64,000 bases of DNA from a virus: positions 32,001 to 96,000 of IMG/VR virus record IMGVR_UViG_3300025889_000073. One strand, given 5' to 3'. The notes beneath the pieces were generated by a model. The model was not told the DNA's origin, ran no database searches, and was given only the letters and a program-made list of their open reading frames with translations. Each line of letters opens with the position of its first letter. The stretch's first letter is position 1. This document shows positions 8,779 through 31,273 of the stretch, piece by piece. The position numbers and the translations under genes were made by a program.

Positions 8779-8854
8779 GCCGGTTTAGCTCATTTGGTAG
8801 AGCAACGCACTTGTAATGCGTAGGTGGTCAGTTCGAATCCGACAACCGGCACCA
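8779..8854 (+). tRNA. tRNA-Thr(UGU)
   Basis: cloverleaf, ACGCA-CT-TGT-AA-TGCGT, GTTCGAATC, CCA end. Confidence 0.95.
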
Positions 8855-8873
8855 TATTAAAGGAGAAATAAAA

Positions 8874-8921
8874 ATGACAATTGAAGAATATTGGAAGTGG
8901 ATACACGAAAACGTACAATAA
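8874..8921 (+). CDS. micro-ORF MTIEEYWKWIHENVQ
   Basis: strong AAGGAG SD; lies between two tRNAs. Confidence 0.45.
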   Translation: MTIEEYWKWIHENVQ

Positions 8922-8932
8922 AAATTTGTTAT

Positions 8933-9017
8933 GCGACTGTGGCGGAATAGGTAGACGCAACAGACTTAAAATCTGTCGGCTTAGGCCGTGCCGGTTCGAT
9001 TCCGGCCAGTCGTACCA
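8933..9017 (+). tRNA. tRNA-Leu(UAA)
   Basis: ACAGA-CT-TAA-AA-TCTGT, long variable arm, CCA. Confidence 0.95.
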
Positions 9018-9020
9018 ATT

Positions 9021-9097
9021 CTGACCATAGTTCAGCTGGATAGAACAACAGCCTTCTAAGCTGTGGGTCGGGGGTTCGAATCCCTCTGGTCAGGCCA
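9021..9097 (+). tRNA. tRNA-Arg(UCU)
   Basis: ACAGC-CT-TCT-AA-GCTGT, CCA. Confidence 0.95.
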
Positions 9098-9099
9098 AT

Positions 9100-9127
9100 T
9101 CCTCGATAGCTCAGTTGGTAGAGCAGT
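9100..9127 (+). pseudogene. truncated tRNA 5' fragment (Asn-like)
   Basis: TCCTCGA-TA-GCTCAGTTGGTAGAGC-AGT: acceptor 5' strand and D arm only. Confidence 0.7.
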
Positions 9128-9204
<77 letters not shown>

Positions 9205-9208
9205 TTAT

Positions 9209-9283
9209 GTGAATGTGGTCGAATGGTTAGGCACCGGATTGCAAATCCGGACTATGCAGGTTCGAATCCTGTCATTCACTCCA
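9209..9283 (+). tRNA. tRNA-Cys(GCA)
   Basis: CCGGA-TT-GCA-AA-TCCGG, U discriminator, CCA. Confidence 0.95.
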
Positions 9284-9284
9284 G

Positions 9285-9360
<76 letters not shown>

Positions 9361-10852: not shown

Positions 10853-11619
10853 AGATACTCGTAACTGGTTATAAAGGCTTTATTGGTTCACATATGGCTA
10901 GTTCGTTGAGTGAGCATGATGTTGAAGTTTATGATTGGGAACAACCTTATCCTGGTGTTATGGATTATGATTGGGTTATTCACATAGGAGGAATTTCATC
11001 AACAACTGAACGTAATATTGAAAAGATATTGCGGCAAAATTATGATTTTTCTTGCCGACTGTTTGATGATTGCAAAACTTTCGGAGTCAATTTTCAATTC
11101 GCTTCATCTGCTTCTGTATATGGATTAGGATTAGATTTTAGAGAAAATTCACCACCAGACCCAAGAACGCCTTATGCTTGGTCTAAATATCTTTTTGAAC
11201 GATATGCTATGAAAAATTTAGGCGGCAACATTGTTCAAATATTTCGTTATTTTAATGTGTATGGTCCTGGTGAAGAACACAAAGGAGACCAAGCCAGTCC
11301 ATTTACACAATTTGAGAGACAGGTTAAGAAAACCGGTCAGGTTAAAGTTTTCCGTGGAAGTGACGAATTCCGTAGAGACTTTATTCATGTTGATAAAATA
11401 GTATCTTTACATAAAAGTTTTTTGAATATACCGGAAAGTGGCATATGGAACTTTGGTACAGGCCGAACCATGAGTTTTATGGAAATAGCCAAAAAATTTA
11501 CTGATAATATAGTTGAAGTGGATGTACCGGAAAAATTAAAAGATAGTTATCAAAGATACACCTGTGCTGACCCAGCAAAGTTAAAATTGACTTTGAGGAC
11601 ATATAGTTCGACTAAATAG
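10849..11619 (+). CDS. ADP-L-glycero-D-manno-heptose 6-epimerase-like extended SDR
   Basis: TGxxGFIG, GGISSTTE, ASSASVYG, YxxSK, RYFNVYGPGEEHKG. Confidence 0.8.
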   Translation: MKILVTGYKGFIGSHMASSLSEHDVEVYDWEQPYPGVMDYDWVIHIGGISSTTERNIEKILRQNYDFSCRLFDDCKTFGVNFQFASSASVYGLGLDFRENSPPDPRTPYAWSKYLFERYAMKNLGGNIVQIFRYFNVYGPGEEHKGDQASPFTQFERQVKKTGQVKVFRGSDEFRRDFIHVDKIVSLHKSFLNIPESGIWNFGTGRTMSFMEIAKKFTDNIVEVDVPEKLKDSYQRYTCADPAKLKLTLRTYSSTK

Positions 11620-27192: not shown

Positions 27193-27858
27193 ATGAATTT
27201 TTGTCATGTTAAATTGGATGAGTTGAATTTCGAAATGGAATCAGAAACCACGGAAAGGGGTAGAGTCTATAAAGTTCCAGGAGGAGGACTCTACCCTTCT
27301 ATCACAACAGTATTATCATCATACAATAAAAAAGCTCTGATGGAATGGCGCAAAAGAGTTGGTGAAGAAGAAGCTAATCGTGTAGCTAAAGCTGCATCTG
27401 GTCGTGGAACCAGATTACACAATACGGTTGAGAAATATCTCCTTAATGAGTTGACTGACGTTAAAATAAAAACTATGATGCCTGACATTAAGGAAATGTT
27501 TTTCGATATGCGTAAAATCATTGATGAGAATATTGGTGATATTTATGGTATTGAACAACCACTTTATTCCCACAAATTAAGACTCGCAGGCCGTTGTGAT
27601 TGTATTGCGGAATGGAATGGACAGTTATCAATCGTGGACTGGAAGACCGCAAGTAGAGCCAAAGACAAAGAACATATAAAGAACTATTTTATGCAGGCTA
27701 CGGCTTATGCAGAAATGTTTGAAGAACTGACCGGAAAGGCAATAGACACAATTGTTGTGGCGATAGCTGTGCAAAGTGAATCTCCGCAGGTGTTCATTGA
27801 GAGTAAGTATAAATACCTTCTCCCTTTAAATGAATATAACGAAAGGTACCAGAGATGA
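27193..27858 (+). CDS. PD-(D/E)XK exonuclease (Cas4/RecB-like)
   Basis: YPSITTVL, RGTRLH, AGRCD, VDWKT, QATAY. Confidence 0.85.
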   Translation: MNFCHVKLDELNFEMESETTERGRVYKVPGGGLYPSITTVLSSYNKKALMEWRKRVGEEEANRVAKAASGRGTRLHNTVEKYLLNELTDVKIKTMMPDIKEMFFDMRKIIDENIGDIYGIEQPLYSHKLRLAGRCDCIAEWNGQLSIVDWKTASRAKDKEHIKNYFMQATAYAEMFEELTGKAIDTIVVAIAVQSESPQVFIESKYKYLLPLNEYNERYQR

Positions 27859-28217
27859 AAAGTATACTGGCAGCGCTTTTGATTATGTTGCCGGTGATTG
27901 GTTTTGCTGAACCAAAAAAGAAAGAAGAATCTAAGCCGTTAATGATGAATGTGGAAACAATGTGCAATGATTCATCATTATTAGATTTGGTTATGTTTAA
28001 ATATGGTGAAATGCCTGTTATAAAAATGGAATCAATTCGTAGTTTAACTAAAGGAGATGATACTACGTCATTTGTTTCAGTTTTATTTGTTAATCAAAAA
28101 ACAAGAAGTTGGACTTTGATTGAAGAACGAGGACCCTTATATTGTGTTATTGGTGTTGGAGTGAACATTCGAATTTTTTCTGATAAACAATCTGAGGAAC
28201 AAACTAAATATTATTGA
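27855..28217 (+). CDS. exported hypothetical protein
   Basis: signal peptide, paired Cys. Confidence 0.65.
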   Translation: MKSILAALLIMLPVIGFAEPKKKEESKPLMMNVETMCNDSSLLDLVMFKYGEMPVIKMESIRSLTKGDDTTSFVSVLFVNQKTRSWTLIEERGPLYCVIGVGVNIRIFSDKQSEEQTKYY

Positions 28218-28220
28218 TAT

Positions 28221-28567
28221 ATTGCTGTATGAAGCAATGAGAAAGGTGTTCTGGACGGCGGTTCGATTCCGCCCACCTCCACCATAAGCACACTGGCCTT
28301 TGGGTGTAGTCCGTAAGGATCAAGAGATAATTTCAAAGACCCCATATAACCAAGTTAGTGTGCTTTTGATGGGGGTGTACAGGTTTCGACAGGGCAATGA
28401 GTAACAGAGTGGACAGCAGGGCAATGTGAAAGCCCTTAGGGTTGAGACTACTCGGCCGAAGAAGCAAAAAAAGTAAACGCAAACGATGAAGTTTACGCAC
28501 TAGCTGCCTAATAAAAGGTAAGCAGGAGTTTTTGGAGGTTTTGACTTGGCAACAGAACAAAACCTCC
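28221..28567 (+). ncRNA. ssrA: circularly permuted two-piece tmRNA, tag ANDEVYALAA
   Basis: acceptor piece with T-arm and CACCTCC-ACCA ends at 28284; coding piece starts GGGGGTG...TTCGAC at 28371 (G3:U70); tag 28479-28511. Confidence 0.92.
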
Positions 28568-28599
28568 TTTCGGAAAAGTATTGAAAAGAGTGAAAAGAT

Positions 28600-28929
28600 A
28601 TGATTGGTATAGATTTAACTAGAATTTCTAGGTTTGAAGGTATTGATTTAGAACGCCTTGGTATGAAATTAGGTCATAAATTAGATAGTCCAAAAACTGC
28701 TGCTAAAGTTTGGGCCTGTCTTGAGGCTTTAACAAAAGCTGAAGGAAAAAAGTTTAACCCCAAAAATATAAAGTTACTTTTTAACGTAGCCTGTGCGCCA
28801 ACGGTAAAAGGTGTTGACCCTAATCCTATGGTTTATTCTGACCGTGTATTATCTGGTGAATATATATTATCTTTAACCCATGAAGGCGACTATGTTGCCG
28901 TTGTTGCTTTGCGTAAGGAAATGAAATGA
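28600..28929 (+). CDS. acpS: holo-ACP synthase (4'-phosphopantetheinyl transferase)
   Basis: IGIDL..ISRF, WACLEALTKA, LSLTHEGDY. Confidence 0.8.
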   Translation: MIGIDLTRISRFEGIDLERLGMKLGHKLDSPKTAAKVWACLEALTKAEGKKFNPKNIKLLFNVACAPTVKGVDPNPMVYSDRVLSGEYILSLTHEGDYVAVVALRKEMK

Positions 28930-29189
28930 CAAGAGAAGAAGTGATTAATCAAATAAGTGAACTTTTTAATTCCAAATATGGCATTTTGTTGACAGATTAT
29001 CCTGAAGATACTGATGTTACACTATTCGCTGAAATCAATGATAAATTAGATTCTATTGAATTTATGAATTTTATTTTTGATGTTGAGGATATGTTTGAGA
29101 TTAGAGATGCTGGTGACAATGGTGCACCAACAAAATTAGGTGAATTATACGATATGTTCGAAAAAGCTATTTTGGAAAAACAAAAATGA
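28926..29189 (+). CDS. acyl carrier protein
   Basis: acidic, 87 aa, LDSIE (Ser43)...VEDMFEI. Confidence 0.85.
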   Translation: MTREEVINQISELFNSKYGILLTDYPEDTDVTLFAEINDKLDSIEFMNFIFDVEDMFEIRDAGDNGAPTKLGELYDMFEKAILEKQK

Positions 29190-29971
29190 AAAATCTTTTT
29201 AGGGGAACATCGAAAAATTCTCAAATAGTCATAGTGTCTCAAGTTATATTGGGAACATTATCGGGAATATATTTCTTGTTTACCGGTGCATATAGTTATA
29301 TTTGGTATGCATTTATAATGTTTTTCGTTTTCAATCATTTTTTCCACAACGTAGCACTACATAGATATTTTTCACATAAAGCTTTTAAGACAAACAAATT
29401 TTGGCATATTTTTATGGCCATGTTTTCACCATTAGCTTCTGCGGGTTCTCCTTATGGTTATGCCATGGCACATAGAACTCATCATATGTATTCTGATGGA
29501 GAAAAAGACCCAACGAATTTAAATCAAGGCCTTTTGAACGTGGCTTTTTTTCGATGGAACTTAAAACACGTTCCATTACCAATTATGAGAAGTTTGGGTA
29601 ATGATAAGTGGATTATGTTATCACATAATTACTATGTCGGTATAATTTTACTTTTCTGGTTGACATTGATGATTATTGATGTTAGACTGGCCTTGATGTA
29701 TAATTTGGCCGGCCTGTTTATGTTTTTTGAATATTGTGTTATTAATATTGTCAATCATTCTGGATTGCCTTTTTCTTATCGAAATCACGACACCAAAGAC
29801 AATACAACAAATGATTTATTTACAGGACTATTTTGTGGTGACTGGCACAATAATCATCACAATAAGGCCACCAATTGGAATCAAAGGGAGAACTGGTGGG
29901 AGTTTGATATACCCGCACAAATGATAAAGATGATTAAATATGATGATGCAGATGATAAAGCATATAATTAA
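29186..29971 (+). CDS. membrane fatty-acid desaturase (delta-9-like)
   Basis: His boxes HRYFSH, HRTHH, HNNHH; TM segments. Confidence 0.9.
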   Translation: MKNLFRGTSKNSQIVIVSQVILGTLSGIYFLFTGAYSYIWYAFIMFFVFNHFFHNVALHRYFSHKAFKTNKFWHIFMAMFSPLASAGSPYGYAMAHRTHHMYSDGEKDPTNLNQGLLNVAFFRWNLKHVPLPIMRSLGNDKWIMLSHNYYVGIILLFWLTLMIIDVRLALMYNLAGLFMFFEYCVINIVNHSGLPFSYRNHDTKDNTTNDLFTGLFCGDWHNNHHNKATNWNQRENWWEFDIPAQMIKMIKYDDADDKAYN

Positions 29972-30083
29972 TCGAATATATCGCCTTTTGGGTGGTGAAT
30001 ATGTTTGGTGGCAAACTTTAGGATATTTAATCATACACTCATTAATTTTTTATCAAGTTGTGTACTTGGAATATATTAAATGA
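29940..30083 (+). CDS. small membrane peptide (up to 47 aa)
   Basis: MMMQMIKH...LGYLIIHSLIFYQVVYLEYIK; ATGA overlap with fabF. Confidence 0.5.
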   Translation: MMMQMIKHIINRIYRLLGGEYVWWQTLGYLIIHSLIFYQVVYLEYIK

Positions 30084-31273
30084 ACAGACGAGTTGTTATT
30101 ACTGGTATTGGATGTGTCACACCAATTGGTGTTTCTTATACTGAAGTCAAAGATTCTTTGATGACCGGTAAATCTGGTATCAAATATTATGAAGACATAA
30201 AAGCAAATCTTGGTCGAGTTGAGTTTGATATTGATTCACAAATTGAACCGTTAGACCAAACTATCACAGATAGAATTTCCAGATTTGCATGGTATTCTTA
30301 TTTGAAATGTATAGAAGATGCCAAAGTTACAAGTGAAGATGTTGATGGAATTTTCTTTGGTGTTGGTTTTTGTGGCAGTTATACGATTGAGAACACTTTT
30401 CCAGAATATTTAAAAAATCGCCGGGCAAGACCAAACACTTTAGTTAATATTTGTCCTAATTCTCCTGCTTGTTTCATTGCACTCAAGGAAAAAATTACAG
30501 GCATAAATTTTACATATAATAACGCTTGTGCTTCATCAACTTTAGCTTTGGGTGAAGCATATGAAAAAATTTCAAATGGCCAATGTGATGGTATGATTGT
30601 CGGCGGCACAGAATCCTCCGTTAACGATTATGGCATCACAACGTGGCACGGAATGAGAGCTATATCACCAAAAGATGAAGGTCCAACAGCGTGTAGACCT
30701 TTTTCTAAAGATAGAACTGGTGTTGTTGTGGCTGAAGGTTGTGCTGTTTTTTATTTGGAAGAATATGAAAAAGCTAAAGCTCGTGGCGCTAAAATTTATG
30801 CTGAGATATTTGGATATGGAACATCATGGGGCACAGAGTCTATGACCAAACCTAGTGTCGAAGGTGAAAAGAGGGCTATATTAAAAGCTATAGATAAAAT
30901 ACCACAAGGCAGAAAGGTAACCTTTATATCAGCTCATGGTACAGCTACTCCTACTGGTGATATGGTTGAACTACAAGCTATTAGTGAATGTTTTGGAGAG
31001 GAAGTTGAGGAAATTGCAATCACCTCGACAAAATCTCTACACGGTCATACACTAGGTGCCGCAGGGGCAATTGAAACTTTAGGATGTATTGCCGTTTTAG
31101 AAGAAGATAGAATTATACCAAATTGGCATTTAGGTGAACACGACCCGAATACGCCAGAAAATGTATTCTTACCCACTAAACCTATTGACAAAAAGCAGGA
31201 TTTGTGTTTTAATAACTCATTTGCTTTTGGTGGCAGCAATGCCGTTTTAGTTCTTGGTAAATGTTTGGAGTGA
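30080..31273 (+). CDS. fabF: beta-ketoacyl-ACP synthase II-like
   Basis: RRVVITGIG, NACASS, AHGTAT, KSLHGHTLGAAG, NSFAFGG. Confidence 0.92.
   Translation: MNRRVVITGIGCVTPIGVSYTEVKDSLMTGKSGIKYYEDIKANLGRVEFDIDSQIEPLDQTITDRISRFAWYSYLKCIEDAKVTSEDVDGIFFGVGFCGSYTIENTFPEYLKNRRARPNTLVNICPNSPACFIALKEKITGINFTYNNACASSTLALGEAYEKISNGQCDGMIVGGTESSVNDYGITTWHGMRAISPKDEGPTACRPFSKDRTGVVVAEGCAVFYLEEYEKAKARGAKIYAEIFGYGTSWGTESMTKPSVEGEKRAILKAIDKIPQGRKVTFISAHGTATPTGDMVELQAISECFGEEVEEIAITSTKSLHGHTLGAAGAIETLGCIAVLEEDRIIPNWHLGEHDPNTPENVFLPTKPIDKKQDLCFNNSFAFGGSNAVLVLGKCLE

Follow-up and report, generated by a model that had tools for sequence, protein, structure and literature searches.

The window, by which we mean the whole stretch of 64,000 nucleotides that was analyzed, comes from an IMG/VR virus record of 171,728 bp, complete according to CheckV, whose G+C content is about 35%. 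On its plus strand, among neighbors devoted to DNA metabolism, lipids and lysis, lies a tmRNA gene, whose RNA product releases stalled ribosomes. Upstream of it, on the same strand, are a gene for a DNA-binding protein, two small open reading frames (ORFs), a PD-(D/E)XK exonuclease gene (27193-27858) and an ORF of 120 amino acids (27855-28217), which matched no Pfam or PHROG family and whose stop codon is located 5 nt upstream of the first helix of the RNA. This last ORF is not a conserved partner of the RNA gene, since a homologue was found in only four related contigs. Downstream, a lipid operon encoding AcpS, ACP, a desaturase and a ketosynthase occupies positions 28600-31273. ARAGORN also places six tRNA genes at 8779-9360, and the gp32 protein is 56-62% identical to gp32 of T4-like cyanomyoviruses. 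No tyrosine integrase was found in the genome, which is that of an uncultured, lytic-type T4-like phage. Searching the same 172-kb genome for SmpB returned no match at E ≤ 1, so the tmRNA must rely on the SmpB of the host.

The RNA gene was identified by two kinds of model. ARAGORN called a permuted tmRNA (tmRNA*) with the tag ANDEVYALAA at 28192-28602. For Rfam, a family assignment required a covariance-model score no lower than the curated gathering threshold. The tmRNA_permuted model (RF04321) aligned over its full length (model positions 1-213) with 133.4 bits against a cut-off of 47 (E = 6e-26), and the beta_tmRNA model (RF01850) scored 102.5 bits against a cut-off of 84 (E = 4.5e-30); the alpha, cyano and standard tmRNA models were out-competed by RF01850 within their Rfam clan. 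No other RNA family, including the glutamine riboswitch, was detected at E ≤ 1 in a permissive Rfam search of positions 27900-28900. The order of the gene is permuted, with the T-arm and the CCA end (at 28284) preceding the GGGGGUG strand that starts at 28371. Given the ARAGORN call, two Rfam models above their cut-offs, the covariation described below and a complete 172-kb T4-like virus record, there is full support for identifying the gene as a circularly permuted, two-piece phage tmRNA, and a match of this quality greatly exceeds what chance would give. A preliminary description of this DNA had proposed exactly such a gene and had named ARAGORN in permuted mode and the Rfam models as ways to check it; both bear the proposal out, and the structural details and coordinates it listed are all present in the sequence (Table 1).

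Table 1. Features of the permuted tmRNA gene in window coordinates, with base pairing in an alignment of 36 viral copies.
Feature	Position	Strand	Basis or remark	Paired	Pairs changed on both sides
Candidate T4-type late promoter, CTAAATA	28204-28210	+	Within last codons of ORF 27855-28217		
Acceptor piece (3' half of tRNA-like domain)	28221-28284	+	Rfam alignment, ARAGORN, alignment, pair counts		
Outer joining helix	28223-28227 / 28414-28418	+		97%	5 of 5
Middle joining helix	28235-28239 / 28405-28409	+			
Inner joining helix	28247-28253 / 28390-28396	+		99.6%	3 of 7
T-arm	28257-28273	+		100%	3 of 5
Acceptor stem, 3' strand CACCTCC / 5' strand GGGGGTG	28274-28280 / 28371-28377	+	G3 at 28373	100%	2 of 7 (positions 4 and 5)
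Discriminator A	28281	+			
Encoded CCA	28282-28284	+			
Intervening segment (spacer), 86 nt	28285-28370	+	Predicted to be removed in maturation		
Spacer-closing stem, 12 bp	28286-28297 / 28354-28365	+	2 G-U pairs	88.6%	10 of 12
Conserved UGAU	28367-28370	+	U at -1 of predicted RNase P site		
Coding piece	28371-28568	+	Rfam; putative 3' end		
GGUUUCGAC	Within 28371-28568	+	Part of coding piece		
First hairpin replacing pseudoknot 1	28419-28435	+			
Second hairpin replacing pseudoknot 1	28440-28457	+	Stem 28440-28446 / 28451-28457	100% in the 17 sequences having the hairpin	2 of 7
Tag reading frame, ANDEVYALAA	28479-28514	+	ARAGORN; resume codon GCA at 28479; TAA TAA at 28509-28514		
3' hairpin	28534-28567	+	10-bp stem 28534-28543 / 28558-28567; 14-nt loop ACUUGGCAACAGAA		

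The tRNA-like domain is encoded on both sides of the spacer. As had been described, the acceptor stem comprises seven pairs and includes the alanine determinant G3:U70, here G28373:U28278, which is invariant in all 36 relatives. The 5' end of the acceptor piece is putatively placed at A28221, which does not vary in those relatives either. The 86-nt segment between the two halves is closed by the expected 12-bp stem; its interior contains no ORF, and both its sequence and its length are variable between relatives. Further downstream, the tag with its double stop and the hairpin that follows were confirmed as well. The loop of this 3' hairpin has a conserved AAC.GA core, and the hairpin has a homologue in the relatives and in the Rfam beta_tmRNA consensus. 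Upstream of the tag, at the site where one-piece tmRNAs have pseudoknot 1, the window carries two plain hairpins (28419-28457), the second of which is absent altogether in about half of the viral relatives. A minus-strand ORF of 75 amino acids (28333-28560) that overlaps this region was rejected as a gene: it has no family match, and the region shows compensatory changes of the RNA type.

To assess selection on the structure, we counted base pairs in an alignment of 36 viral copies against the structure written from the window. Over the whole structure, 79% of the cells were paired compared with 68.5% in shuffles, and 43 pairs had changed on both sides. None of 500 shuffles reached the observed pairing values, and slid controls were 38-49% paired. 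Table 1 gives the counts for individual helices. In the middle joining helix, the end pairs covary and flank conserved A-A and A-G mismatches. G3:U70, the T-loop, GGUUUCGAC and CCA are invariant across the alignment, and the equally invariant GAAG, GAAA and UGGA loops would fit a conserved tertiary or protein-binding core. The structure of this RNA is under purifying selection. The reading frame of the tag is retained too: among the matches listed, ARAGORN made a permuted call with a tag in 184 of 191 viral relatives, and most of these tags are of the form AND...ALAA.

When the single sequence was folded by minimum free energy, the T-arm and acceptor stem were recovered, as were the spacer stem and two hairpins; 12 of 12 pairs were predicted in the spacer stem and 10 of 10 in the 3' hairpin. 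The joining helices were not recovered in this single-sequence fold; they are supported by covariation instead. In their place, the fold puts a local hairpin at 28222-28237 (28222-28226 / 28233-28237) that competes with the outer joining helix. This hairpin is 83% paired in the 36 viral relatives, with some double changes, and could represent an intermediate in the folding of the first-transcribed piece. We also considered a 3' pseudoknot that would pair the purine run after the tag with the loop of the 3' hairpin, for which the candidate is a helix of 4 bp (28523-28526 / 28545-28548). It is 44.5% paired in the 36-copy alignment, and the mean complementarity across 121 sequences is 4.5 bp compared with 4.1 bp after shuffling, with some relatives reaching 7 bp; the signal is not significant.

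We then compared the gene with viral and cellular copies retrieved by DNA patterns. A strict pattern, which required a spacer of 60-90 nt within a permuted tRNA-like domain, matched 47 viral contigs, and relaxed patterns found 41 more with spacers of 15-45 nt and at least 120 with spacers of 46-76 nt. The best viral matches to the window gene share 79-80% identity with it across about 300 nt, a stretch that takes in the spacer flanks, and for bacterial copies BLAST-level similarity is limited to the T-arm and acceptor part of 37-53 nt. In an unrooted FastTree tree of 142 columns, the window belongs to a clade of 38 rows, all viral, with a support of 99; over 218 rows, the label virus or bacterium requires 6 changes compared with 64.8 when shuffled. 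This short, unrooted tree is no more than suggestive of a largely virus-only clade.

Within the sets compared, two further characters distinguish the viral copies. Their spacers are mostly 46-91 nt long, compared with 22-45 nt for the 120 bacterial copies that were retrieved, a range imposed by the search pattern. No match to the strict long-spacer pattern turned up when 185,579 species were searched with one genome per species, and the relaxed long-spacer pattern had none when 401 genomes from the order to which an Azonexus genome belongs were searched; the short-spacer pattern had nine matches in 61 genomes of the family of that same Azonexus genome. Because the bacterial spacers are also closed by a stem, the 12-bp closing stem is ancestral in this subtype, with only the interior having expanded in phages. 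The second character is the CCA end, which is encoded in 91 of 104 viral copies (88%) and 24 of 102 bacterial copies (24%), counted in the sets whose search pattern did not require CCA.

The position of the gene is also shared by many relatives. Of 117 loci whose flanks are long enough to judge, 43 have an exonuclease homologue upstream in the same orientation, and in a large subgroup of relatives the tmRNA gene occupies a fixed place after the exonuclease gene. Considering these observations together, we lean towards the view that the gene belongs to a virus-specific clade of the beta type that has been inherited among phages for a long time, as opposed to recently captured from a host, that in a large subgroup of uncultured T4-like phages its position is fixed downstream of the exonuclease gene, and that it is marked by an expanded spacer and an encoded CCA. 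If this is true, the spacer would be an expandable slot in which insertions are tolerated, and the extra permuted copies found in several bacteria would derive from mobile elements. Such copies were seen in Cupriavidus consociatus, Stenotrophomonas sp. PD6, a Gallionellaceae MAG and Herbaspirillum, each of which has a one-piece tmRNA (192-226 bits) and in addition one to three permuted tmRNA genes above the Rfam cut-off. In the Gallionellaceae MAG, the permuted copy begins about 310 nt past the standard gene, and in Herbaspirillum a tyrosine integrase is located 2.7 kb from the permuted copy. The extra bacterial copies are probably carried by mobile elements.

The sequence upstream of the gene offers one candidate promoter. 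The preliminary description had pointed to a late-type TAAATA element; the hexamer is present at 28205-28210 and its late reading is plausible, but on its own it is not significant at 35% G+C. It is part of the heptamer CTAAATA, which sits 12 nt upstream of the first RNA helix. Only 7 copies of this heptamer are present in the window where 16.7 would be expected, six of them on the plus strand. In the T4-like phage Aeh1, the late-promoter motif is CTAAATA, beginning at -12 (PMC1524935). By analogy with Aeh1, we regard CTAAATA as a candidate late-promoter motif of the present phage, and the copy at 28204-28210 as a possible but unproven promoter of the tmRNA. Plus-strand copies include those at 11612, 17031, 28204, 31554 and 34966, several of them 50-100 nt before the start of an ORF. 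The canonical T4 late promoter TATAAATA was rejected, having three occurrences in the window (7.8 expected) and none before the tmRNA gene.

No sigma-70 promoter was found directly upstream of the gene; the nearest consensus match (28116-28143) is inside the upstream ORF, and such matches are no more numerous than in shuffled sequence. In many relatives, a near-consensus TTGAC(A)-17-TATAAT promoter ends about 7 nt upstream of the first tmRNA helix, and others have ATAAATA, a tRNA gene or the stop codon of an ORF at this place. Judging from these upstream sequences, phages seem to differ in the expression class of this gene. At the other end of the gene, a terminator scan of the plus strand past the 3' hairpin found no intrinsic terminator, and the hairpin itself is not a canonical one, since only UUU follows its stem. 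Transcription therefore likely reads through into the lipid operon, or the 3' end is formed by processing.

All sequence determinants of a tmRNA are intact in the window gene, which predicts alanine charging, delivery by SmpB and EF-Tu, and tagging with ANDEVYALAA. From these determinants we infer each biochemical step of the following pathway as well as its benefit to the phage, assuming that the RNA fits the SmpB, alanyl-tRNA synthetase and RNase P of the host. The region would be transcribed as one precursor, starting from the CTAAATA motif (at about 28216) or by read-through from the upstream genes, in which the 3' half of the tRNA-like domain would pair with the 5' half. Host RNase P would then cleave after U28370. 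RNase P prefers a U just before its cleavage site, and the conserved UGAU, with its U at position -1, matches this preference; viral and bacterial copies alike have a U there in 91% of cases. Host 3' processing would free the CCA end at 28284, and the stem-closed spacer would be discarded. Processing is predicted to yield one piece of about 64 nt (from about 28221 to 28284) and one of about 198 nt (from 28371 to about 28568), which would be held together by the acceptor stem and the three joining helices. Transcripts of permuted cellular genes are cut by tRNA-processing enzymes into two base-paired pieces (PMC11915505), and by analogy we expect two-piece maturation of the phage RNA.

Once assembled, the RNA would be charged by host alanyl-tRNA synthetase through G3:U70 and delivered by host SmpB and EF-Tu to ribosomes stalled on broken mRNAs. 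Translation would resume at GCA28479 and add ANDEVYALAA, a degradation tag of the ClpXP type. The likely benefit to the phage is additional capacity for ribosome rescue while host and phage mRNAs are degraded during infection. Overall, we consider it highly probable that the gene is a functional ssrA, circularly permuted and of betaproteobacterial type, that serves a lytic T4-like phage through this processing, charging and tagging pathway and the rescue that it would provide.

The same RNA could serve other purposes. One, which the preliminary description had raised but which is speculative, not supported here and of low probability, is that it counters host defenses that cleave RNA, such as anticodon nucleases, HEPN RNases and toxin mRNases, by restoring translation or by replacing host tmRNA that these defenses have destroyed. 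The six tRNA genes of the phage, a common answer to defenses that target tRNA, would agree with such a role, as would the wide occurrence of the gene in lytic phages and the prediction of defense systems with SmpB-like domains that possibly sense tmRNA (PMC11090510). However, no link to defense or anti-defense genes was found in the window, where the neighbors of the gene are of the kinds named above, and published proposals concern general ribosome maintenance or tagging (PMC9004378). Similarly improbable as the main purpose is proteolysis, in which more tagging would lead to the degradation of incomplete host proteins and the recycling of their amino acids, a role that Buchholz et al. proposed for the tmRNA of phage Melnitz (PMC9004378). 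The tag ends in ALAA, a degron of the ClpXP type that is kept in most viral copies, but cellular tmRNAs have this ending by default, which makes it uninformative about purpose. These data do not separate general ribosome rescue during mRNA turnover from tag-driven proteolysis or from counter-defense.

It is very improbable that the RNA acts as an inhibitor or decoy that soaks up host SmpB or EF-Tu and thereby blocks trans-translation in the host. The phage lacks an SmpB of its own, and such a role has been suggested for the RNA of mycobacteriophage DS6A, which consists of the tRNA-like domain only (PMC4131195, PMC11915505). Nevertheless, the full tag frame, the resume codon and the stops are conserved across the viral clade, and a decoy would need none of them. 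Less credible still is a non-functional passenger, either a recently captured host gene or the remnant of an attachment site: ssrA is a frequent integration site of temperate elements, which often carry pieces of the gene (PMC9004378), and some bacteria have extra permuted copies, one of them beside an integrase, but here the gene is complete, it has only viral copies as its closest relatives (identity of about 70-80% across some 300 nt, with bacterial matches confined to the short segment described above), it lies within the 38-member all-viral clade, and compensatory changes, which by themselves largely refute this reading, show long-term selection that maintains the structure in a lytic phage devoid of an integrase.

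The gene can be placed among known systems. Among the closest are the betaproteobacterial two-piece tmRNAs of family RF01850, found in Rhodocyclaceae such as Dechloromonas, Azonexus and Thauera. Shared with these are the permuted order, the T-arm, the 7-bp acceptor stem and G3:U70; a U that precedes the 5' end; a spacer closed by a stem and starting with N-AAG after ACC; a tag of ANDxxFALAA type; and a 3' hairpin whose loop is similar. Unlike the 120 bacterial copies retrieved, with their spacers of 22-45 nt, the window has a spacer of 86 nt, and its CCA is encoded. The middle part of its joining helices also fits the bacterial RF01850 model poorly.

Among isolated phages, the Stenotrophomonas phages Bhz51, Moby and Mendera (Menderavirus; OR797040, MN095772 and MN098328) carry a permuted tmRNA of the same viral type. 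Common elements are UUGUAUGAAG...GAAAG in the 5' region, the CCA-N-stem arrangement and UGAU before GGGG; the Bhz51 gene is annotated as ssrA in GenBank with a layout that matches the window. The spacer of these genes is 56 nt long and stem-closed. In contrast to the window gene, with which they share only 76% identity over 76 nt, they are located inside a tRNA cluster, belong to a different phage genus and encode a longer tag of the AANDDSYTVRIAA type, and their host is a gammaproteobacterium with a standard tmRNA. Melnitz and the pelagimyophages HTVC008M and Mosig are, like the present phage, T4-like aquatic myophages with a complete permuted ssrA and no smpB; their tmRNA is reported as alphaproteobacterial (PMC9004378), whereas the best subtype for the window is beta. 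The Melnitz gene also has a glutamine riboswitch and an early promoter (PMC9004378), in contrast to the window, where no riboswitch was found at E ≤ 1. Finally, the ssrA genes of mycobacteriophages of the Bxz1 group and of Bacillus phage G depend on host SmpB as the window gene does (PMC4131195), but their tmRNAs are one-piece molecules in standard order.

The novelty implied by the preliminary description does not hold, since permuted tmRNAs of phages are already documented (PMC9004378; GenBank ssrA of phage Bhz51). Among 18,146 phage genomes, Buchholz et al. (2022) detected tmRNA genes in 402, with 133 unique structures (PMC9004378). Two-piece forms account for 53 of these structures, and 50 of the 53 come from phages of marine or aquatic samples; isolates with two-piece tmRNAs include Melnitz, HTVC008M, phiCbK, S-CRM01, Moby and Mendera, and a permuted tmRNA was present in 17 of 47 contigs related to Melnitz, a T4-like phage of OM43, so the gene is frequent in that group without being general (PMC9004378). 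A literature search under the phrase 'phage-encoded tmRNA' found no paper. Phage-borne permuted tmRNAs being established, the window gene is a sound annotation and not a discovery.

The viral clade, the longer spacer, the encoded CCA and the fixed position after the exonuclease gene are modestly new additions. The viral type occurs in well over 150 IMG/VR contigs, and the current tmRNA database holds 79 phage sequences (PMC11915505). Spacer length and encoded CCA could refine annotation models and help to separate phage-borne from chromosomal ssrA genes. Moreover, because the tmRNA clade tracks phages and not hosts, the use of tmRNA subtype to predict hosts or to infer host switches needs caution.

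The region downstream of the gene is conserved in part. A homologue of the lysozyme gene (31915) is found downstream of the tmRNA in 38 of 69 loci with enough flanking sequence, and in related phages homologues of ORF 31609 and of this lysozyme gene are located within about 1-2 kb 3' of the tmRNA. Viewed against this arrangement, the lipid operon of the window looks like an insertion into a conserved block of tmRNA, ORF 31609 and lysozyme gene.
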